From positions 41,486-105,485 of the forward strand of contig JAJEDD010000041.1 of the NCBI GenBank assembly GCA_022821685.1: a DNA stretch of 64,000 nucleotides, given 5' to 3'. Made by a program: the position numbers and the translations under genes. Shown here in pieces: positions 15,179 to 56,274 of the stretch (position 1 is its first letter; each line of letters starts with the position of its first letter). Under the pieces are notes generated by a model. The model was given only the letters and a program-made list of their open reading frames with translations, did no database searches and was not told the DNA's origin. This DNA comes from Acidimicrobiia bacterium. GTDB lineage: Bacteria > Actinomycetota > Acidimicrobiia > Acidimicrobiales > Aldehydirespiratoraceae.

Positions 15179-15315
15179 AGAGCGAGCGAAAATAGGTGAG
15201 AGCTGGTCGCGTCGCAGGGGGGTCATTCCCGCTCATGTTCGCTGCGCTCACGGGCCGCTCGGGCCACGGCCTCGCCCGTATGGGCCGGACTCGCTCACCT
15301 ATTCGCTCGGCCTCT
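15179..15315 (+). mobile_element. MITE-like TIR-bounded intergenic repeat, full copy
   Basis: The left end is agagcgagcgaaaataggtgag. The right end ctcacctattcgctcggcctct is its imperfect reverse complement. The element is 137 bp. Confidence 0.8.
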
Positions 15316-16284
15316 GAGGAAAGCGCGTGTCAGATGATTGACAGCATCGGCAGCCTCTGAGACAGCTAGATGGCCTATGCCGTCTAGGACTACGAGTTCC
15401 GCGTTCTTCAGCCCGTCGACAAGGATGCGGGCGTAGGCCACGGGGGTCTCTGCATCCAGCTCTCCGGCGATCACCAGGGCGGGAGCCTCGATCTCGGCCA
15501 AGCGGTCAACGACGTTGTGGTCAGGCAGACACTCGACCGCGGCCCGCAGGCCCGCGGTCGGGATGCGGGCGAAGCCGGCCGCCCGCATGGCCAGCATGTC
15601 GGCACTGAGGCCGGGGCCAGCGATTGAAGTGAGGACACCCTCGGCGATGTCGGCCGGCGTCAGGCCCGCGTCCAGGGGCGCCAGCCGGGCGGCTCGCCAG
15701 GCGTCGGGGTCGGTGCCGTCGAGCCCGAACGCTGCGCTGGTGTTGGCCAGCACCAGCCGGTCGACCCGATCGGGGTGACGCAGGGCGGCGTGCAGAGCGT
15801 GCATGCCGCCGAACGACTCCCCCACCAGATGGGCCCGCTCCACCCCGGCCGCGTCGAGCAGCCGGGCCACCGCATCGGCGATGGCGGCGAGGGTCAAGGG
15901 CGTCACCGGTGCCGAGGCGCCGTAACCGGGCATGTCCCATGCGATGCATCGGAACGTGCCGCTCAAGCCTTCAAGCTGCGGCGCCCATGAGGTGCGCGAG
16001 CCTCCGAGGCCGTGAAGGAACACCACCGCGTCACCCTGACCCTGCTCGCGCCAAGCCAGAGGCCCGTCCACATCGACGGCGGCGCCTTGGCCCTGACCCC
16101 CACCGGCCAAGGGCCCGTTCACATCCACAGCATCGCCTTGACCCTGCTTGCCACCGGCCTGCGGGCGGTCCGCATCAACGGCGACGTGGGCCCGGCGGTC
16201 CATGTCGGTGTCACGCTCGGGCTGTCGGCCCCTGCGGCTGTTGGACATGCTCGGAACGTACACTCTCGGCTGTGGCGACGGCAC
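15295..16284 (-). CDS. Alpha/beta hydrolase with a triplicated N-terminal segment
   Basis: VVFLHGLGGS oxyanion region and nucleophile elbow GESFGG. The true start is uncertain (16284, 16248 or 16203). The C-terminal ..RGRANR* is read from the repeat TIR. Confidence 0.8.
   Translation of the reverse strand: MPSPQPRVYVPSMSNSRRGRQPERDTDMDRRAHVAVDADRPQAGGKQGQGDAVDVNGPLAGGGQGQGAAVDVDGPLAWREQGQGDAVVFLHGLGGSRTSWAPQLEGLSGTFRCIAWDMPGYGASAPVTPLTLAAIADAVARLLDAAGVERAHLVGESFGGMHALHAALRHPDRVDRLVLANTSAAFGLDGTDPDAWRAARLAPLDAGLTPADIAEGVLTSIAGPGLSADMLAMRAAGFARIPTAGLRAAVECLPDHNVVDRLAEIEAPALVIAGELDAETPVAYARILVDGLKNAELVVLDGIGHLAVSEAADAVNHLTRAFLRGRANR
16027..16179 (-). repeat. Tandem repeat, 3 x 51 bp, in frame in the 5' part of the hydrolase gene
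   Basis: The units are 16129-16179, 16078-16128 and 16027-16077. They encode VDADRPQAGGKQGQGDA, VDVNGPLAGGGQGQGAA and VDVDGPLAWREQGQGDA. Confidence 0.85.
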
Positions 16285-16976
16285 CGCTGATCGGCATCTC
16301 GGGGAGAACCCGCACCGCAGGCGAGATCGACCTGAAGCCCCGCTCGCTTCAAGCCTGCGATGTGGACCTGTACTTCTGCGACTACGCCCGCGCGGTGCTG
16401 GCGGCGGGCGGACTGCCGGTGTACCTGCCCACCAGCGCCGACCCGGCCGACTACGCCGAGCGTTTGGACGGGCTGGTGCTCACCGGCGGCGCCGACATCG
16501 AGCCCCAGCGCTACGGGCAGGTGGCCAATGCCGAGCTGTACACCCCGGAGCCGGCCCGCGACGCCTTCGAGATGGCCCTGTTGGACGGAGCGGCCCGATC
16601 GGGAGCGCCGGTGCTGGGCATCTGCCGGGGCATCCAGGTGTTCAACGTCCACGGCGGCGGAACCCTCCACCAACACGTCGCCGCCCACGCCGGCTTCGAC
16701 CGGCCCAGCACCCGCCTCCACAGTGTCAAACTCGCCGAGGGCTCGCTGGCCGAGTCGTTGTACGGGCCGTCGATTGAGGTCAATTCGCTGCACCACCAGA
16801 CCATCGACCAACTCGCCGACGGCTACGAGATCACCGGCCGCAGCGACGACGGCGCCATAGAGGCCATCGAAGCCCACGACCGGCCCTGGATCGGCCTCCA
16901 GTGGCACCCCGAGCTGCTCGACTCCCGAGACACCGACCCCGCCTTCACCTGGCTAGTAGCGGCCTCCCGTCCCTAA
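16272..16976 (+). CDS. Gamma-glutamyl-gamma-aminobutyrate hydrolase family protein (PuuD-like, peptidase C26)
   Basis: GGADIEP, the nucleophile in GICRGIQV, and WHPE (LQWHPE). The GTG at 16272 (VATAPLIGISG) is preferred. The upstream part of the track ORF is antisense to the hydrolase repeat. Confidence 0.8.
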   Translation: MATAPLIGISGRTRTAGEIDLKPRSLQACDVDLYFCDYARAVLAAGGLPVYLPTSADPADYAERLDGLVLTGGADIEPQRYGQVANAELYTPEPARDAFEMALLDGAARSGAPVLGICRGIQVFNVHGGGTLHQHVAAHAGFDRPSTRLHSVKLAEGSLAESLYGPSIEVNSLHHQTIDQLADGYEITGRSDDGAIEAIEAHDRPWIGLQWHPELLDSRDTDPAFTWLVAASRP

Positions 16977-17007
16977 CCACACCCCAACTCGGTTCAGCGA
17001 GGAGAGC

Positions 17008-20000
17008 ATGAACGCCGTCACTTCCCGCCAACAGATACGGGATCTGATTTCGGCCCGGGAGTTGGGCGAGCTGTTCCGGGGGCACCTGGGATGGGACAAT
17101 CCCCGCCAAGAACCGCTGCCTTTCGGCTCAGACTCGTCGATGGCGGCTCATCCGGTGGCTTCAAAGAAGGCGGTGGATGTATGGCGTGTGCCGTGTCCGA
17201 CTGTTCCGGCCGCTGTGGAGCGACACAAGATCATCCGCCGGATTCGCAGGCTCTACAGCTTGGAAACGCTGGTCGTCTTTGATGGCGATGATGGCGACAT
17301 GCTGTGGCTTTGGCCGGAGCAACGCCCAGCGGGGGACAGCTACCGGGCGGTTGGCCATCGATGCGATCGAGACGCTGTCGGAGAAGAGATGCTTGATCGG
17401 TTGGCGGGTGTGGCCTTCACGCTCGACGAGGAGGACGACCTCGCGGTGTCCGATGTGTTGTCGCGGGTGCGGCAATCGCTCGGGGTGGACATCGCGGATC
17501 TGGACAGAGAAGTCGAGAGGGCAGTTCTAGATATCGCGGTGCCCCTGTCAGGCGATGCGGGCTGCTCGGCGAAGATCGGCGAGGTCTTGTCCCAGGAGGG
17601 TGGCGAACAGTCCAACCGGATGGCCGCGGCGATCATGTTCAACGCTGTCGTGTTCCAACATCACATCGCTTCTCATCATCCGGGCATTGTGCGCTCCCTT
17701 GAAGAGGTCCGCTCCGCCGGTGCTACCAGGGCTCTTGTCGCCGCTGAGTGGGACGCTATCCTCGCCATCAACTACTGGCCGATCTTCGGGATCGCCCGGA
17801 AGTTGCTCAACGCGATCGGCGACGATGATGTCGCCGCTGCGGTGTTGGGAGACTTGTACGGGAGTGCTTCTGACAAGGTCGCCCATCGGGCTACGCAGGG
17901 TCTGGTGGGGGAGCTCTTCGGGCGGCTCATAGTCGACCGGAAGTTCCTGGCCACCTACTACACGCGTCCGCAGTCGGCTTCGTTCCTGGCTGAGATGGCC
18001 GTGAACCGCCTTGATGTGGACTGGGCCGATCCCGAAGCGGTGACATCGCTGCGCGTGGCGGATTTGGCTTGCGGCACGGGAGCGCTGCTAACAGCCTCGT
18101 ACCGCCGCATTGCAGCCCGCCACGAAGACGCAGGCGGCGATCCCGCCGAGCTGCACCAGAAGATGATGGAGGAAGTCCTCACCGGATGCGACATCATGCC
18201 CGCGGCCGTGCATCTGACCGCTTCGGTGCTGTCGGGCGAGCACACCCATATCGGGTACAAGGGCACCAAGACCTGGGTCATGCCTTTCGGCGTGCATAAT
18301 TTCGGCGCCGGTCCGCAGACCTGTCTTGGTTCGCTGGACTTGCTGTATAGCGGTCAACGGCGGGCACTGTTCGGTGACGGCTCGACCGCGGTCGAGGCGA
18401 AGGACACGGCGGTCCCCAGCGAAGCCAAGGTCCCCGACGGGAAGTTCGACTTGGTGATCATGAACCCGCCCTTCACGCGGCCCACCAACCATGAGAACAA
18501 GCAGCGCGGCCTGGAGGAAGGGGTGGTTGTGCCGAACCCGGCGTTCGCCGGCCTGGACAACGACGAAGTCGCCCAGGAGCTGATGAGCTACGCCCTAGAA
18601 GAGGCCTACGACGCGGGAGGGATCAAGCCCGCAGACCGGGCTGGCCACGGCAACGCCGGACTCCCCACGAACTTCGTGGACCTCGCCCACCGTAAGCTCC
18701 GAGCCGGTGGTGTGCTGGCCCTGATCGTCCCCGCTGCAGCCGTCACCGGAAGAAGCTGGGAGAAGACCAGACAGCTGCTCGTCAAGCACTACGAGGACAT
18801 CGCGGTCGTCACCATGGCGTCAGCGGAGAGCAGCACTGCCCGCGCTTTCTCCAACGACACCAACATGGCAGAAGCGATCATCGTCGCCACGAGACGGAAG
18901 CAGTCCGCAACGCTCACCGAAACCAAGGAATGTCTTGCCCGGTACATTTGCCTGCGGAGCCGGCCGGCGACCAACCCTGAGGGTGTCGACATAGCCCGCG
19001 CAGCATCGCCCGGCGGGGACTTCGACAAACCCGGCGGGTCGCACGCCGGCTTCGCTGTTCCGGTTCTGTTCACGGCCGACGGCGGCGGGCATCCCTCCGG
19101 TGTCATGAGCGCCGAGCTGTGCGGCATCGCCGCGAACCTCACTGTTGGGCATCTGCGCCTTCCCGGCCTGGCGGACTTGATCGATGTCCCGACGGTTCCG
19201 CTCCGAGACCTCGGCTCCCGAGGGCCCGTGGATCGCGACATCAACGAAGGCGGCGGCCGAGGCCCCTATGAGGTGACACCCCCTGAGCGGCGGTGGTCCG
19301 AAGACACTCTTTGGAAGGACAAGGAGCAGGTGCGGCAGTCGCACGTGGACTCCGAGCGGCCGGTGCTATGGAGCCACGACGCGGACATGGAGACTCGCAT
19401 GGTCGTCCTACCATGCTCGACCGGTGTAGTCCGCCCCGGCATGGACGACCGGGCACAAGAGCTCTGGGACGGTTACACCAACAAGAAGAAGGAGCAGATC
19501 GCTGGCGCCACCCGCCTACACATCAACCGCGACTTCCGAGTGAATTCCCAGCCGCTCGGTGCGTGCCTGACCCCCGAAGCTGCGCTGGGTGGATCAGCGT
19601 GGCCCTCCTTCGCGCCTACCCCCCCCCCCGGCTGGAATGGGCGACCGCGAGACGTGGGAGAAAGCGCTGTGCGTGTGGCTGAACTCCACACTCGGCTTGG
19701 TGGGACGGTGGTGGGTGTCATCGCGGCAGCAAAACGGCAGAGCAAGATTGAGCGTCACCACCATCGGGAGCGTTCCGGCTCTGGACTTGCGCAGCGCCAC
19801 TCCGGCGATGATCCGCGCCGCTGCGGCCATATACGACCAATTCGAACACCGGCAGTTCCTCCCCGCCAACGAGGCCTACCGAGACCCGGCGCGCCACGAC
19901 CTGGATGAGACGCTAGCGAAGCGGGTGCTGCACCTGCCAAGAGAGGCGCTTGCCGGACTGGCCCGACTGCGCGACATGTGGTGCCGCGAGCCGTCGGTGC

Positions 20001-20035
20001 ACGGCAACAAGAAGACCCGCCCAGACGGTTCCTGA
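17008..20035 (+). pseudogene. Large (about 1008 aa if restored) N6-adenine DNA methyltransferase, split by a +1 frameshift in a C11 tract (phase-variable or sequencing-error candidate)
   Basis: Motif I VADLACGTGALL and motif IV VIMNPPFTR. The frame starting at 17008 reads ..AWPSFAPTPPP, then turns Arg-rich and stops at 19908. The frame of ORF 19589..20035 continues with plausible sequence (AGMGDRETWEKALCVWLNSTLGLVGRWW...). A good RBS (gaggagag) precedes 17008. Confidence 0.8.
19619..19629 (+). repeat. Homopolymeric poly-C tract (11 nt) inside the methyltransferase gene
   Basis: Counted directly: acc + ccccccccc + g. C10 or C13 would fuse the two reading frames. Confidence 0.95.
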
Positions 20036-20054
20036 CCGACTCGTCACCTGTTGC

Positions 20055-23000
20055 ATGCCACGAATCATCGACAACATCGAGATCGGTCTCGCTGAGGACC
20101 TGCGCGCCGAGATAGCACGCGGTGCTGTGCGGCTCGACGCTGCCATCGGGTACTTCAATCTGCGGGGCTGGCGAGAACTGGCCGACGCCGTGGACGCCAT
20201 GCCTCACACCGAGGACGCTCCCAAGGCGAGAATTCTCATCGGGATGGCCCGCGATCCCCATGACGAACTCCGTAGGGAGCTGACGGGGCGAGGCGACAGC
20301 ACCCTTGACAACGCCACCCGCAACACCATGCGCCAGCAGACCCGCAAGGTGCTGCGCGAGCAGCTGACCATCGGCCTGCCCACCGCAGCCGACGAGAAGG
20401 CCCTGCGACAGCTGCGGGCACAGATGGACTGCGGCGACGTGGCCATCAAGCTGCACTTGGCTCATCGTCTCCATGCAAAGCTCTACATATGCCACCGCGC
20501 CGATGACCGGTACCCGAACCTCGGATATGTCGGGTCGTCCAACTTGACATTCGCCGGCCTCGGCGGGCAGGGCGAGTTGAACGTTGACGTGCCCGACACC
20601 GACGCTTCCGAGAAGCTCGCCGCATGGTTCGAGGCGCGCTGGGAGGACCCTGCTTCGGTTGATGTGACCAGCGATCTGCTGGACCTTCTCGACGAATGCT
20701 GGGCCCGGCCTCACCCGCCTGAGCCATATCTGGTGTATCTGAAGATGGCCTACCACCTGTCCCAGGAGGCCCGGGACGGGTTGATCGCCTATGGTCTGCC
20801 CGCCGACTTGCGGGCCACGCTGCTGGAGCACCAGGCGGTCGCAGCGCAGTTCGCGGCCGGAGCGCTTGACCGGCTCGGCGGGGTGATGGTCGGAGACGTG
20901 GTCGGCTTGGGCAAGACCCTCGTCGCGGTGGCTGTCGCCAGGCTGCGCCAGGACGCGCACGGCGGCCGTGTGCTCGTCGTGTGCCCCAAGAACCTCAGAC
21001 CCATGTGGCAGGGCTACTGCGACACCTACGACCTCCGCCACGAAGTCGTCGAACTGTCGATGGCGACCAAGCGGCTGTCAGAACTGCGAGGCCGTTACAG
21101 CACGGTCGTCGTTGACGAGTCCCACAACCTCCGCAACCGCACCCGCAAGGACTACCAGGAGATCAAGGGCTTCATCGATGACAACGACTCCAAAGTGATG
21201 CTGTTGACGGCCACCCCCTACAACCTCGACTTCACCGACGTCGCGAACCAGTTGGCCCTCTTCGTGGGTGAGGAGGACCCGCTGGGTGTTACCCCCGAGG
21301 CCGCCATTGCCGAGCATGGCGTCGAGCAGGTCACCCGCCGCCTCGACTGCGGCCCTGACAGCCTCGCGGCGTTCCGACGCAGCGAGTACCCCGAGGACTG
21401 GGAACGGCTCATGGACCGCTACATGGTGCGTCGCACCCGCCGCTCGGTGGAGCGCAGCTACGGCGTTGCCGGCATTCAGGTGATCTCCCCTGACGGCGAG
21501 TCGGCAACGTATCCCGCCGACGGCTGCGAGGTGCTTATCGACGGCGCCGCCAAGCGAGGATGGGATCGCGTGCGCATCGAGAGCCAAGGCGCGCGTGTGC
21601 GAGTCGGCGGTGACGAGTCGTTCATTGCTGGAGCGCAAGTGCAAGTCGCCATCAACGGCAGCCTGGCCAGCCTGCCGGCGGGCAGCAGCGCAGCCGTGAG
21701 GCGCTGTCTGCGAGTCGGTGACTCCCTGCATCTCATTCCCCGCCGCCGCGCTGTCAGCGTGACATACCAGCCCGGCCCCGACGCAGCCATCGCGTCCGAT
21801 GAGACCCTCGACGACATCAACGCGTTGGATCTGCCCCGCTATCGCCTGATCGACTACCTGGCGAAAGATGCCGACAAGCGAGACGACCTGACCGGCGATG
21901 AATCCGCGGCGATCAAGTCCTGGCGGGAACAGCCCCAGCGCAACTTGAACCTGATCGGATTCGCCCGGACACTGATCTACAAGCGGCTCGGATCGTCGGG
22001 GCCCGCGCTCATCGCCACACTGCGCCGCCACCGCCTCCGCAACGACATCCTCCTGCTCGCCATAGACCGGGGATGGGACCTGCCAACGATGAGCAGCTCC
22101 ATCGCCGTCGAGCCGTCACCCACCGACATCGACGACGGAGCAGGCGACGAAGAACTCCCGGTCGATGCCGACAGCAGGATCGCCGATGCCGAAGCCGCGT
22201 ACGCCAAGCTCGTCGATTCCGGCAAAGTCAAACACCTGCGGCCGTTGCTGTTCACCGATGCGCTGGGAGATGCGCTGCGCTCGGACAATCGGCTCATCGG
22301 CGGGATCCTCGACCGCATCGGCGACTGGGACCAAGGACACGACACCAAGCTCGACGCCCTCGCGGGGCTTGCCTGCGGCGACCACCGCTCCGAGAAGGTG
22401 GTCGTGTTCACCGAGTACGCCGACACCGCCTCCTACGTCGCGGCTGCCTTGACCGAGCGCGGCATCGACAGCGTCGAGGCGGTCACCGGCTCCGATGCCA
22501 ACCCCACACTGGCCGCCCGCCGATTCTCGCCGCTTTCCAACGAATCGCTGGGCGGGATGCCCCGACGCGAACAGCCGATACGGGTGCTGGTATCCACCGA
22601 CGTCCTATCAGAAGGCCAGAACCTCCAAGACGCCCGCGTCGTGGTGAACTACGACCTGCCGTGGGCGGTAGTGCGGATAGTGCAGCGCGCCGGGCGCGTG
22701 GACCGCATCGGCCAAACCGCCGACGAGGTGGTCGTCGCCTCCATGCTCCCACCCGGCGGCGTCGAAGAAGTGATCGGCAACCACCGGCGCATCCGCGAGC
22801 GGCTAGAAGCCAACGCCGTCGTGTTCGGCGGAGGGGAACGATTCTTCGGCACCGACGAAGAAGAAGCCGCCCTGCGAGACGCGATCTACAACGAGGACCC
22901 GCCCGACGACTCAGACGACGAAGTCGACGTGGTGTCTATGGCCTACGAGATATGGCGAGCCGCACAACGAGACCACCCCGAGAAGGCCGAGGCGGCCGAG

Positions 23001-23582
23001 GCTCTGCCCAACGTGATCTACTCCACTCTCGCCCGAGCCGGCGATGCCGACGAGCTGGGCGTGCTCGTGCACATCCAGACCGACGACGAGATCAACGCGT
23101 TCGCCCTCTCACCCGCGTCAGGCAGCCCGCCGAACGCCGTCGCCGCCCGTGAGGCGCTGCGCCTAGCCGCCTGCGAACCCGACACACCAGCCGCCGACAC
23201 ACTCCAACAGCACCACGAACTGTTGGCCGCAGCATTCAACGGGCCCCTGCGCTTCCCCGCAGCAGCCGCCCAAGGCCAACTATCAGGGGTCCGCAGCCGA
23301 TGCTGGAACAGGCTGCGCGGCTTCCTCAACAGCGCCACCCACCAAACCCAGGGCAATCTGCTGTGGGACCCAACAACCCTCAATGCCGCACTGGACGCTC
23401 TGTATCAACGCCCCCTGCTGCGCGACGCCCGCGAGAAGATCGCCACAGCCCTACAAGAGCACAGCGACGACAACCTCGCGGCCCTCGTAGCGGACCTCCA
23501 CTCCCGCAACGAACTATGCGTTCCACAAGCAGCCGACGTCGCCCCGCCCCACATCATCTGCTCCATGGGCCTGACCCGCTGA
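20055..23582 (+). CDS. PLD(HKD)-nuclease / SNF2-family helicase fusion protein (1175 aa)
   Basis: N-terminal single HKD motif (HAKLYICHR...GYVGSSNLTFAGL). SNF2 motifs I GLGKT, II VVVDESHNLRN, III LLTATPYN and VI QRAGRVDRIGQ, plus the helicase-C segment STDVLSEGQNLQD. The ATG at 20055 is 19 nt after the methyltransferase stop. Confidence 0.85.
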   Translation: MPRIIDNIEIGLAEDLRAEIARGAVRLDAAIGYFNLRGWRELADAVDAMPHTEDAPKARILIGMARDPHDELRRELTGRGDSTLDNATRNTMRQQTRKVLREQLTIGLPTAADEKALRQLRAQMDCGDVAIKLHLAHRLHAKLYICHRADDRYPNLGYVGSSNLTFAGLGGQGELNVDVPDTDASEKLAAWFEARWEDPASVDVTSDLLDLLDECWARPHPPEPYLVYLKMAYHLSQEARDGLIAYGLPADLRATLLEHQAVAAQFAAGALDRLGGVMVGDVVGLGKTLVAVAVARLRQDAHGGRVLVVCPKNLRPMWQGYCDTYDLRHEVVELSMATKRLSELRGRYSTVVVDESHNLRNRTRKDYQEIKGFIDDNDSKVMLLTATPYNLDFTDVANQLALFVGEEDPLGVTPEAAIAEHGVEQVTRRLDCGPDSLAAFRRSEYPEDWERLMDRYMVRRTRRSVERSYGVAGIQVISPDGESATYPADGCEVLIDGAAKRGWDRVRIESQGARVRVGGDESFIAGAQVQVAINGSLASLPAGSSAAVRRCLRVGDSLHLIPRRRAVSVTYQPGPDAAIASDETLDDINALDLPRYRLIDYLAKDADKRDDLTGDESAAIKSWREQPQRNLNLIGFARTLIYKRLGSSGPALIATLRRHRLRNDILLLAIDRGWDLPTMSSSIAVEPSPTDIDDGAGDEELPVDADSRIADAEAAYAKLVDSGKVKHLRPLLFTDALGDALRSDNRLIGGILDRIGDWDQGHDTKLDALAGLACGDHRSEKVVVFTEYADTASYVAAALTERGIDSVEAVTGSDANPTLAARRFSPLSNESLGGMPRREQPIRVLVSTDVLSEGQNLQDARVVVNYDLPWAVVRIVQRAGRVDRIGQTADEVVVASMLPPGGVEEVIGNHRRIRERLEANAVVFGGGERFFGTDEEEAALRDAIYNEDPPDDSDDEVDVVSMAYEIWRAAQRDHPEKAEAAEALPNVIYSTLARAGDADELGVLVHIQTDDEINAFALSPASGSPPNAVAAREALRLAACEPDTPAADTLQQHHELLAAAFNGPLRFPAAAAQGQLSGVRSRCWNRLRGFLNSATHQTQGNLLWDPTTLNAALDALYQRPLLRDAREKIATALQEHSDDNLAALVADLHSRNELCVPQAADVAPPHIICSMGLTR

Positions 23583-23643
23583 GTCCAACCGATCGCGCGA
23601 CACCGAACTCGGCGAGGTGCCCGCTGTAGGTGACGAGTGAATG

Positions 23644-24762
23644 TCAGGTGAATTCGACGCGCCGCTTTAGGCGGTTGCCCACGTTGTACTGCAGCTTGCC
23701 CTCGTATTGGAGCCTTCCGACCACGATGCCAGCAGCGACCTCGTGTTCGTCGGCGAAGCGCTGAATGTCGGCAAGTGTCCGAAGGCCGAATAGACGCTCC
23801 TCAAGTCGCTCGGGAATCAAGGTGGTTGCAGCAAACCGGTCGGCCTCGGATTCTCTCACAAGGTCTTCGGCCACATACGGCTGTGCGCCACTCTCGTTCT
23901 TGCCAATCGCCGCATCGATGAAGCGCTCGCGGCGAGGGTGGAGCAGGATGTGGCCCACTTCGTGAAACAACGAGAACCAGAACTGGTCGTCGCGGCGGTA
24001 GCGCAAACTCAAGGCGATGACGGGGTTCCCGGCCAGCCAGTAGGCCGCTCCACTGACGCGAGCGCCCTTGATCTCCGGCTCGAACACCACTGCAACTCCG
24101 GCGGCGCCACATACCGACTGGAGCCACTCTCCGACTGTCTCGGGCGGATCCGCGGTCGCAGAGCGGATCTTCAGCAGCAGCTTGCGGAACCTTGACGGAT
24201 CGTAGATGCCACGATCAACTTCCGCCGCCTTGATCTCTGTGATCCTCACCCAGGACGCAAGCGCTCCCTGATCCACTTCGTACGCACTGGCGCGGCGGAA
24301 GGACGCGGCCGGTTGACTCCACACTGAGTGCCATGCGGCCACTGAGGCAACTCCGAAGAAGCGCTTCGCCTCCGCGATTAGGGTCGCCTTATCGTCGCTT
24401 TGAGGTAGGTAGCCCCGCTTGCGCAACTCGCGCCAGGGCAGCAGCTTCAGCCACTCCAAGTCCTCCGCGGTCGCCTGACGCTCAGCGAGCCGGGTCAGTC
24501 GTGCCTGATAGTTGGCCTCCCGGGCGTTCCAGAACTGCGACGGGATCCCGAGCACCCGTTCCAGCTTCACCGCGACGGCCGGAGTCAGGGTCGCGTGGCC
24601 CTTTGCGAGCCGGTTGACATGCTTGGGGCTCAATTCGGCGCGGCGGGCTAGCTCGGCCTGAGTCAGGCCAGCCTCTTCCAGCGCCTCCAGCAACGTCTCG
24701 CCTGGAGGCACGGCATAATCGGGTTCATAAGTGATCAGTTCGTTGGCCATGCTCTTACTCAC
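23644..24762 (-). CDS. higA: HigA-like XRE HTH antitoxin fused to an ImmA/IrrE (COG2856) zinc metallopeptidase domain
   Basis: N-terminal HigA-type HTH (PPGETLLEALEEAGLTQAELARRAELSPKHVNRLAKGHATLTPAVAVKLERVLGIPSQFW). C-terminal HExxH motif (FHEVGHILLH). Confidence 0.8.
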   Translation of the reverse strand: MSKSMANELITYEPDYAVPPGETLLEALEEAGLTQAELARRAELSPKHVNRLAKGHATLTPAVAVKLERVLGIPSQFWNAREANYQARLTRLAERQATAEDLEWLKLLPWRELRKRGYLPQSDDKATLIAEAKRFFGVASVAAWHSVWSQPAASFRRASAYEVDQGALASWVRITEIKAAEVDRGIYDPSRFRKLLLKIRSATADPPETVGEWLQSVCGAAGVAVVFEPEIKGARVSGAAYWLAGNPVIALSLRYRRDDQFWFSLFHEVGHILLHPRRERFIDAAIGKNESGAQPYVAEDLVRESEADRFAATTLIPERLEERLFGLRTLADIQRFADEHEVAAGIVVGRLQYEGKLQYNVGNRLKRRVEFT

Positions 24763-24824
24763 CCCCTTATCGCTCTCTGCTGTCGCTTAGGGCCGCCGCC
24801 AGGCTCAGCACCCTCCGACTCCTG

Positions 24825-25160
24825 CTAGTCATGGGTGTCGGCAATCTCGACGACTACCACCCCTGTCACAAGTTTCCAGTCGATACTGCCTTCGGAGCGC
24901 CGAACCCGGTCAGGATCAGCTGGCTCGACAATGAGACGCCTGGGGTGATCCAAATCGCCGCTCATCTGGCCTCTCCGGTCGGCACGAAGCGGGTGCCACC
25001 TTCCAGGAAGGCTCAAGAGTTCGCTCGCGTCGGCGACCGCCTCCAAGTCGGCCAAACGCTGCTTCAGCCGTCGGGCTCCTTTCGATCCGAGCCTTCGCGT
25101 CATCAACCGCTCCTGCGCGCAGAGCGCTGCGAGCCGTCGATCTCGAAACTGGATCAGCAC
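24825..25160 (-). CDS. higB: HigB-like toxin (plasmid-maintenance killer protein, RelE/ParE superfamily)
   Basis: 111 aa with the HigB pattern (IQFRDRRLAALC...AKRLKQRLADLEAV....L.LPG.R.HPL..DR.GQ.S..L....RLI). GTG start. Toxin-first order, as in higBA. Confidence 0.75.
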   Translation of the reverse strand: MLIQFRDRRLAALCAQERLMTRRLGSKGARRLKQRLADLEAVADASELLSLPGRWHPLRADRRGQMSGDLDHPRRLIVEPADPDRVRRSEGSIDWKLVTGVVVVEIADTHD

Positions 25161-50228: not shown

Positions 50229-50377
50229 AGAGCAGGCGCGGATTGCTCCCAAGCGTCTCGCAGCGCGGCGTTGTCACTCCCGCTCTTGTTCGCTGCGCTC
50301 ACGGGCCGCTCGGGCCACGGCCTCGCTATGCGCTCTGCGGGAACCCCAAGGGGGACGGATCTATCCGCTCGGCCTCT
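50229..50377 (+). mobile_element. MITE-like TIR-bounded intergenic repeat, full copy with a degenerate left end
   Basis: The core tcccgctcttgttcgctgcgctcacgggccgctcgggccacggcctcg is identical to the copies at 55855 and 56137. The right TIR is ctatccgctcggcctct. Confidence 0.75.
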
Positions 50378-55854: not shown

Positions 55855-55992
55855 AGAGGGCGCGCAAATAGGTGAGAACCCGTCGCGTCGCAGCGGTGTC
55901 TTTCCCGCTCTTGTTCGCTGCGCTCACGGGCCGCTCGGGCCACGGCCTCGCCCCGTATGGGCCGAAATCGCTCGCCTATCCGCTCGGCCTCT
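55855..55992 (+). mobile_element. MITE-like TIR-bounded intergenic repeat, full copy (138 bp)
   Basis: agagggcgcgcaaataggtgag...ctcgcctatccgctcggcctct. The inner roughly 110 bp are identical to copy 56137..56274. Confidence 0.85.
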
Positions 55993-56035
55993 AAGCAAAT
56001 ACACGCTCATAATTCATAGTTCAGGACTGTACCTG

Positions 56036-56130: not shown

Positions 56131-56136
56131 CGTCTT

Positions 56137-56274
56137 AGAGCGAGCGCGGATAGGCACGAGCCCGTCGCGTCGCAGCGGTGTCTTTCCCGCTCTTGTTCGC
56201 TGCGCTCACGGGCCGCTCGGGCCACGGCCTCGCCCCGTATGGGCCGAAATCGCTCGCCTATCCGCTCGGCCTCT
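56137..56274 (+). mobile_element. MITE-like TIR-bounded intergenic repeat, full copy (138 bp)
   Basis: agagcgagcgcggataggcacgag...ctcgcctatccgctcggcctct. Its last base overlaps the acpS stop codon. Confidence 0.85.

Follow-up and report, generated by a model that had tools for sequence, protein, structure and literature searches.

A run of eleven cytosines (C11) at positions 19619 to 19629 (+ strand) interrupts the reading frame of a DNA methyltransferase gene in a 64,000-nucleotide stretch of contig JAJEDD010000041.1 from an Acidimicrobiia bacterium, and this run is very probably a genuine contingency-type switch. The whole stretch is called the window here. We consider it likely that C11 is a hypermutable tract whose slipped-strand phase variation switches a two-gene, restriction-modification-like cassette in uncultured, sponge-associated Acidimicrobiia. 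The second gene of the cassette (20055 to 23582, + strand) encodes a 1175-aa protein in which a PLD (HKD) nuclease is fused to an SNF2 helicase. The original prediction, made from the letters of the window, had proposed such an ON/OFF switch in the methyltransferase; it fits well with tract lengths of C9 to C15 among relatives, with lesions at the tract that are only ever ±1, with C11, C12 and C13 in a single strain and with purifying selection on both genes. The switch is of a known kind. New are its sponge-symbiont host and the uncharacterised methyltransferase/PLD-SNF2 cassette in which it lies.

The frame breaks exactly inside the run, and the original prediction described the site accurately throughout. 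C11 is flanked by GCGCCTA on the 5' side and GGCTGG on the 3' side and encodes the residues Thr-Pro-Pro-Pro. The open reading frame (ORF) found in the window is an OFF form of 966 aa (17008 to 19908, + strand). Its translation consists of 873 authentic residues (...GGSAWPSFAPTPPP) followed by a 93-residue, arginine-rich, out-of-frame tail that stops at 19908. The sensible continuation of the protein (AGMGDRETWEKALCVWLNSTLG... / AGMGDRETWEKALCVWLNSTLGLVGRWWVSSRQQ...) is found in the frame of 19589 to 20035, and the translations confirm both the predicted ..AWPSFAPTPPP upstream of the break and its continuation in the +1 frame. Removal of one C produces a single ORF of 1008 aa and addition of two produces one of 1009 aa, in agreement with the earlier statement that C10 or C13 would be continuous. 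Both lengths occur as natural in-frame alleles, C10 with 1008 aa and C13 with 1009 aa. In the window, which has 69.5% G+C, C11 is the only homopolymer of 8 bases or more, the next longest being G7 and C6. With the window's own run-extension probability of about 0.21 per step, around 0.013 C/G runs of 11 or more are expected, and the related loci, 197 kb in all, hold no run of 9 or more other than homologous copies of this tract. The run sits at 87% of the methyltransferase gene, ahead of the C-terminal domain. As a run of at least 9 bases inside an ORF, it counts as a mononucleotide simple sequence repeat (SSR) by the definition of the REBASE survey (PMC5909438).

Three assemblies of one strain differ at this position and nowhere else. 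The 90% cluster of the window's product has three relevant members: P0122 is 1009 aa long and matches the window protein except for one extra proline, while in P0123 (764 aa) and P0124 (132 aa) the protein is split in two. On the DNA level, L016, a Logan assembly of SRR16351678, aligns to 15286 to 20761 of the window with 0 mismatches over 5478 bp, and its single gap is the tract, which here is C13 (ON). L017, a 237-kb scaffold (ENA ERZ23491298, 'KELL22-1_SAMN22237337'), aligns to 7389 to 29682 with 0 mismatches over 22295 bp; again the single gap is the tract, here C12 (OFF, in the other frame). Thus, the sole differing position among the three is C11, C12 or C13. Either the reads were heterogeneous at the tract or the specimens had different dominant lengths. 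The label and the BioSample range suggest that these assemblies trace to the Ircinia sponge study of Kelly et al. 2022 (PRJNA768976), in which NovaSeq 2x150 reads were assembled with MEGAHIT per specimen (PMC9531527).

The variation extends to related lineages. A protein search returned full-length relatives of 1002 to 1012 aa with 79-94% identity, as well as several relatives that end at exactly 87-89% of the query. We aligned the DNA of nine relatives with the window at the site (82-95% nucleotide identity around the tract), giving a set of ten lineages. Five are ON: L005 has C13, L010 and L013 have C10, and L011 and L012 have a C11 that was lengthened by a synonymous CCG>CCC change. The other five are OFF, namely the window (C11), L007, L008 and L009 (C9 each) and L006 (C15). 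The tract therefore spans C9 to C15, and half of the lineages are out of frame. Each of the five OFF alleles becomes an ORF of 1005-1009 aa by gain or loss of one C, a second lesion is found in none of them, and all five frameshifts are confined to a 9-15-nt tract in a gene of about 3 kb. Comparison of tract length in relatives, which the original prediction had suggested as a check, speaks for a switch, and the sign of a plain pseudogene that it had named, a fixed C11 with further inactivating mutations, was not seen. The locus behaves as an SSR locus should: the repeat number differs between strains, and its length toggles the frame of an otherwise intact, selectively maintained gene.

A further group of close relatives (P0003, P0006, P0008, P0009, P0010, P0011, P0012 and P0014) has an interrupted tract at the site equivalent to window 19613-19640, reading PDPDRAG, PDPAQAG, PKPPRIS or PDPPRMG for PTPPPAG, and all of these are full length at the site. 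Judged by their sequences they look like 'locked-ON' forms. In the tree these alleles fall among tract-bearing ones, a pattern suggestive of repeated 'locking' of the switch, or of recombination. A scan of JGI metagenomes with the tract and its 5' flank (TTCGCGCCTAC9) returned two unrelated chance matches only. ORFs for C-terminal fragments were also considered as a census of OFF alleles and were unusable, being a mix of contig-end pieces and breaks at other sites.

The OFF alleles show no relaxation of constraint. Synonymous divergence (dS) between lineages is 0.2-0.9, and the dN/dS ratio (omega) after the tract is 0.19 for OFF-OFF pairs, 0.19 for mixed pairs and 0.21 for ON-ON pairs, with 0.18 upstream of the tract. 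The partner protein is 1174-1175 aa long in the ten lineages, stop-free and with HxK, GKT and DESH kept, and its omega is about 0.15 in every class. Because dS reaches 0.2-0.9 and yet omega stays at about 0.2 downstream of the tract and about 0.15 in the helicase, the OFF alleles appear to be young or transient and not decaying. Across a neighbour-joining tree the OFF alleles are dispersed, with ON alleles as sisters, and the only sister OFF pair combines C9 with C15; this distribution implies at least five independent tract-length changes. The uninterrupted run is kept at synonymous sites above background. ACC CCC CCC is invariant in all ten lineages, while outside the tract, where the amino acid is conserved, only 25% of four-fold sites show no change, and CCC is present in all ten at only 3 of 40 conserved proline columns. 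The 10 nt directly 5' of the tract (TTCGCGCCTA, window 19604-19618) are likewise identical in 10/10 lineages (homologous positions in L005-L013), and this stretch includes two four-fold synonymous sites, GCG and CCT, of a kind that is invariant in 25% of cases elsewhere in the gene.

Several points weigh against slipped-strand phase variation, and some of these are technical. Runs of 11-13 G or C bases readily suffer PCR stutter and sequencing indels, and assemblers could choose different lengths from such reads. The window's own C11 call may be a homopolymer miscall, the three same-strain assemblies may come from the same or sister NovaSeq libraries, and several OFF calls (C15 in L006, C9 in L007) were made in long-read assemblies, a data type with frequent homopolymer errors. 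Moreover, the tract lengths come from assemblies and speak only indirectly to a mixture within a population. In the extreme case the true sequence would be in frame throughout (C13 or C10), and all out-of-frame lengths would be sequencing, PCR-stutter or assembly miscalls. C11, C12 and C13 in otherwise identical assemblies is the pattern that noisy reads at a long G/C homopolymer give; the probable source data are the NovaSeq 2x150 reads and MEGAHIT assemblies mentioned above (PMC9531527), and some relatives come from long-read assemblies with contigs of 3.9 and 4.1 Mb. However, three of the OFF calls are C9 in independent lineages, two of them in Logan assemblies of SRA runs; should these be short-read data, a wrong consensus over 9 bases would be improbable. 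The in-frame lengths vary too (C10, C11 with the synonymous CCG>CCC, C13), so the tract varies in evolution, and 50% OFF would require consensus errors in half of the assemblies, across platforms. A technical origin also leaves the interrupted 'locked' alleles, and the absence of any other difference in 22 kb, unexplained. We consider a pure artefact to be very unlikely, while a technical contribution to the length differences between assemblies is possible.

The remaining points are biological. Conservation of the tract could stem from slippage dynamics and not from selection for a mutable site. Some other family members have clearly decayed; loss of the system is frequent, and the tract may be where it begins. 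Matches to curated families are all far below their cut-offs, and a role of the family in methylation and defence is putative. A rival reading is a mutational hotspot without an adaptive switch: the tract would be real and unstable, OFF alleles would be the first step in the repeated loss of a costly, horizontally acquired cassette, bet-hedging would not be under selection and reversion would have no role. Decayed copies do exist. P0025, P0027, P0121 and P0037 together with P0130 have frameshifts elsewhere in the methyltransferase, around residues 640, 700, 750 and 760, and in another case about 5 kb have been deleted from the two genes, leaving a remnant (L001 6001-7203, L002 6001-7209 and P0077) that joins methyltransferase residues 1 to ~404 to the C-terminal portion of the PLD-SNF2 protein. 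The remnant is found in two metagenome-assembled genomes (MAGs), named Acidimicrobiaceae SB0673_bin_3 and Ca. Aldehydirespirator sp., and is plainly a dead cassette copy. A hotspot of loss is also in line with the cassette being a low-GC island in variable contexts, with distant homologues that have no helicase partner, and with the interrupted-tract alleles, which indicate that the protein can do without the poly-proline loop. In contrast, 0/5 OFF alleles carry a second lesion despite dS of 0.2-0.9, constraint on the partner helicase is no weaker in OFF lineages, and the uninterrupted run is conserved synonymously above background. A tract of C9 to C15 furthermore reverts about as readily as it mutates, which makes reversibility intrinsic. 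Stepwise loss without a switch is therefore unlikely in our view, and phase variation is the reading that we favour.

Long homopolymers can induce slippage of RNA polymerase, and CCC-N codons are sites prone to +1 shifts. A different explanation is programmed recoding, in which the out-of-frame length is itself functional and polymerase slippage or a +1 ribosomal frameshift at CCC-C gives a fixed ratio of truncated to full-length protein. Some leakiness of OFF alleles is plausible, and may arise at a low level from RNA polymerase or ribosome slippage. However, half of the relatives are simply in frame, and the OFF shifts run both ways (C9 and C12 versus C11 and C15), which one recoding event could not accommodate. 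Nor is there an evident conserved stimulatory element; 3' of the tract the sequence varies (AGMGD, VGIGD, DWAN), and the interrupted-tract alleles encode the full protein directly. Programmed frameshifting was rejected on the opposite shifts of the OFF alleles and the half of alleles that are in frame, and recoding as a whole seems to us extremely unlikely. A separately translated C-terminal fragment, starting from the ATG at MGDRETW, was rejected as well, since this start is not conserved (AGEGD, VGIGD and DWAN in relatives).

What an OFF allele loses can be judged from the architecture of the methyltransferase. In the repaired protein motif I (DLACGTGALL, around residue 355) precedes motif IV (NPPF, 486-489), and the chain is composed of an N-terminal domain, a gamma-class N6-adenine methyltransferase core, a beta-rich region resembling a target recognition domain (TRD) and a C-terminal helical domain. 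Profile matches are to Eco57I, type IIG, PglX and MAD2-like families, all of them weak and far under the curated cut-offs, and a search of PDB sequences with the methyltransferase gave no match. We used an AlphaFold2 model of P0001, a full-length relative with 94% identity (mean predicted local distance difference test score 81.5, predicted template-modelling score 0.80). Its best fold matches are BpuSI (type IIG, 3s1s, E 9e-14), BrxX/PglX (BREX), DrdV (type IIL), LlaBIII (type ISP), CamA and M.BseCI, with 7lo5 and 4xqk as further PDB entries among the top matches. Because of the motif order, the C-terminal recognition region and these fold matches, the protein is assigned to the gamma class of N6-adenine DNA methyltransferases, those whose recognition region is C-terminal. 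The original prediction had pointed to mod and type IIG/III methyltransferase genes; the protein is not a Type III Mod and is probably not a classical Type IIG enzyme. A type IIG/IIL enzyme is one chain in which an active N-terminal PD-ExK nuclease is fused to a gamma methyltransferase and a TRD. Fold and weak hidden Markov model matches point to this type; however, residues 1-195 lack any invariant position across 65 homologues, and the nuclease-helicase is encoded separately.

In the P0001 model the tract loop (PTPPP) is a surface loop that leads from strand 867-870 to helix 878-893, and the C-terminal helical domain covers 878-1000. The alignment of the 65 homologues has a variable tract loop followed by a C-terminal domain dense in invariant residues (N893, G897, R901, W902, S905, R907, Q908, G911, R912, W992, E995, P996). 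The segment that codes for this domain in the window (19630 to 20035, + strand, about 135 aa, read in +1 relative to what precedes the tract) is the best-conserved part of the family and is absent from the OFF product. By this conservation, the OFF product would lose a functionally important part.

The partner gene starts 19 nt past the in-frame stop of the methyltransferase and adjoins it in every related tract-bearing locus fetched. In the OFF frames the distance from stop to helicase start grows to 146 nt (C11) or about 370 nt (the C12/C9 frame). Its product matches PLDc_2, SNF2-rel_dom and Helicase_C, as well as DrmD-like profiles (110-121 bits), 'HKD+Snf2' of PADLOC and phospholipD_antiphage of NCBIfam. 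It had been noted before that the nuclease-helicase is intact while the methyltransferase is OFF, which is correct for the full 1175 aa at 20055-23582, and that the nuclease may depend on the methyltransferase or be harmless alone, which agrees with an intact helicase in all five OFF lineages. Since the helicase is intact in all OFF lineages, we infer by analogy with Type III, type ISP and BREX systems that the methyltransferase may supply target recognition for both activities.

In the mechanism that we propose, slipped-strand mispairing at replication would add or remove a single C, and such indels would escape the actinobacterial NucS mismatch repair, which leaves 1-2-bp indels unrepaired (PMC11551767). 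C10 or C13 (3n+1 in this allele) would give the full enzyme of 1008-1009 aa, while C11 or C12 would give an early stop that removes the highly conserved C-terminal helical domain. The methyltransferase carries the only recognisable DNA-recognition module of the cassette, and loss of this module would most likely silence modification and restriction together, so that the intact nuclease-helicase would be harmless in OFF cells. A population would then be a reversible mix of defended and undefended cells. On this account the length differences would be biological and not technical in every case, the OFF state would abolish function, the nuclease would depend on the methyltransferase, and switching would be adaptive.

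The unusually late position of the tract, after the methyltransferase core and the recognition region and before the conserved C-terminal domain, leaves room for a variant of this mechanism. The late tract may uncouple methylation from restriction, in that the truncated OFF enzyme would still recognise and methylate DNA and could no longer engage the PLD-SNF2 protein. We regard this variant as quite unlikely. If it were true, obligate sponge symbionts could switch restriction alone, from M+R+ to M+R-, with a safe return to the defended state, and the tract would act at the population level as a gate on horizontal gene uptake, within a two-gene defence system that had not been characterised before.

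Phase variation of this kind has been reported in high-GC actinobacteria, and the statement in the original prediction that it is undescribed there is contradicted by pglX of Streptomyces coelicolor (PMC4365076, citing Sumby & Smith 2003), by Mycobacterium tuberculosis (PMC10334774) and by mod of Corynebacterium casei (PMC5909438). The G8 tract of pglX in S. coelicolor A3(2) phase-varies, loss or gain of one base (8 G to 7 G) inactivates the gene, and switching occurs at 1e-2 to 1e-3 from ON to OFF and at 1e-3 to 1e-4 from OFF to ON (PMC4365076). Phase variation has been called common in pglX genes (PMC11341690). The Pgl system (BREX type 2) resembles the window locus in its high-GC actinobacterial host and in a G/C homopolymer within a large gamma-class N6-adenine methyltransferase; PglX gives specificity to a phage-defence system, and its fold matches that of the window protein. 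However, the window locus has no pglZ, pglW, pglY or brxC nearby and its partner is a single PLD-SNF2 protein. The window protein scores 20.7 bits against a cut-off of 500 (PglX models overall 14-21 versus 400-900), and the tract of its family is longer (9-15 bases), lies at 87% of the gene and is a predicted switch. BREX/Pgl was rejected as an identity of the cassette on the missing PglZ and BrxC/PglY partners and the PglX scores far below cut-offs.

The phasevarions of Haemophilus, Neisseria, Helicobacter and many other bacteria share with the window an SSR in a methyltransferase ORF that toggles the frame, and in these Type III systems restriction requires the Mod subunit, which lets OFF cells survive. 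In the REBASE survey 17.4% of mod genes meet the SSR criterion, environmental species and Corynebacterium casei included (PMC5909438). The window enzyme differs in its gamma-class motif order and C-terminal TRD, as in type IIG/PglX, and its partner is not Res and combines a PLD nuclease at the N-terminus with an SNF2 motor. Type III Mod/Res, defined by a beta-class Mod with a central TRD and by a Res subunit composed of a superfamily 2 helicase and a PD-(D/E)xK nuclease, was rejected for the gamma class, the C-terminal recognition region and the PLD-SNF2 protein in place of Res. In M. tuberculosis homopolymer-tract phase variation is widespread, with the 7C tract of glpK and tracts genome-wide (PMC10334774, bioRxiv 10.1101/717272). 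These reversible G/C-homopolymer frameshifts likewise arise in a high-GC actinobacterium whose NucS is blind to 1-2-bp indels (PMC11551767), but their targets are metabolic and virulence genes, the tracts are around 7 bases long and they are documented in thousands of isolates and by experiment.

Concerning the enzymes themselves, BpuSI, MmeI, DrdV and LlaBIII (type IIG/IIL/ISP) have the same succession of N-terminal domain, helical region, gamma N6-adenine methyltransferase core and C-terminal recognition region, and in type ISP a similar module is coupled to a superfamily 2 (SF2) motor and a nuclease. Each of these enzymes is one chain that includes a PD-(D/E)xK or Mrr nuclease, whereas in the window cassette the PLD nuclease and SNF2 motor are on a separate protein. 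DISARM (DrmD, DrmMI, DrmC) and stand-alone PLD-helicase antiphage proteins share SNF2 helicase, PLD nuclease and N6-adenine methyltransferase domains with the cassette. In the window partner, however, PLD and SNF2 are fused, and the matches are far below cut-offs (121 versus 610, 131 versus 1100). Genes for DrmA or DrmB (DUF1998) are present in none of the loci, and DISARM was rejected as there is only a DrmD-like SNF2 region (120.8 bits versus 610) and no DrmA/DrmB.

The cassette lies in a low-GC island (17000 to 25000, GC 0.63-0.67 against 0.70-0.72 in the flanks), which also contains a gene for an HTH_3 + Peptidase_M78 protein, ImmA/IrrE-like by its Pfam domains (23644-24762, - strand), that is not kept beside the cassette in relatives. 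The island is surrounded by housekeeping genes, e.g. purH, sucC, pcrA and a glmS-like gene, and neighbours at the locus encode a GATase, an abhydrolase, the HTH-M78 protein and a luciferase-like protein. Among relatives the genes that flank the methyltransferase and PLD-SNF2 pair vary, and because of these differing flanks we regard the two-gene, restriction-modification-like cassette as mobile and horizontally acquired. Scans of IMG/VR with protein and DNA patterns gave no match and therefore no evidence for a phage-borne cassette. The related database records are Acidimicrobiaceae SB0673_bin_3, Ca. Aldehydirespirator and Ca. Poriferisocius, and these names suggest that the host group is sponge-associated, uncultured Acidimicrobiia. 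The wider methyltransferase family has more than 6000 database matches. A scan of GTDB genomes yielded the two deletion remnants (L001, L002) and two homologues at 46% identity (L003 263-3307, L004 5254-8451) without a PLD-SNF2 gene after them, and nothing else; downstream of the L004 homologue an ABC ATPase and an RTX/cadherin-repeat protein are among the neighbours. Because these homologues have no PLD-SNF2 gene, the pairing with a nuclease-helicase is not universal across the wider family.

One further element was noticed in the window. An intergenic repeat of about 145 bp is present in four copies, all on the + strand (15179-15322, ~50230-50375, 55855-55999 and 56134-56274), with about 85% identity overall, complementary ends and an identical 37-nt core (15238-15274, 50289-50325, 55914-55950 and 56196-56232). 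An Rfam scan of the window gave no matches, this element included, and the fold of the repeat is not significantly more stable than that of shuffled sequence (z = -1.37). It may be an element related to miniature inverted-repeat transposable elements (MITE) or repetitive extragenic palindromic (REP) sequences.

Most known examples of phase-variable methyltransferases belong to cultured, host-adapted pathogens, with the Pgl system of Streptomyces as a further case. The tract described here suggests that the same bet-hedging logic operates in uncultured sponge symbionts of the Acidimicrobiia, whether these are maintained vertically or horizontally. In MAGs, contingency loci get called split genes or pseudogenes, as here with a product of 966 aa, or of 764 + 132 aa. 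Comparison of independent assemblies of one strain can reveal such loci without culture. If confirmed, the tract would be a tractable marker for defended and undefended subpopulations in sponge microbiomes, and the cassette a candidate new defence system.

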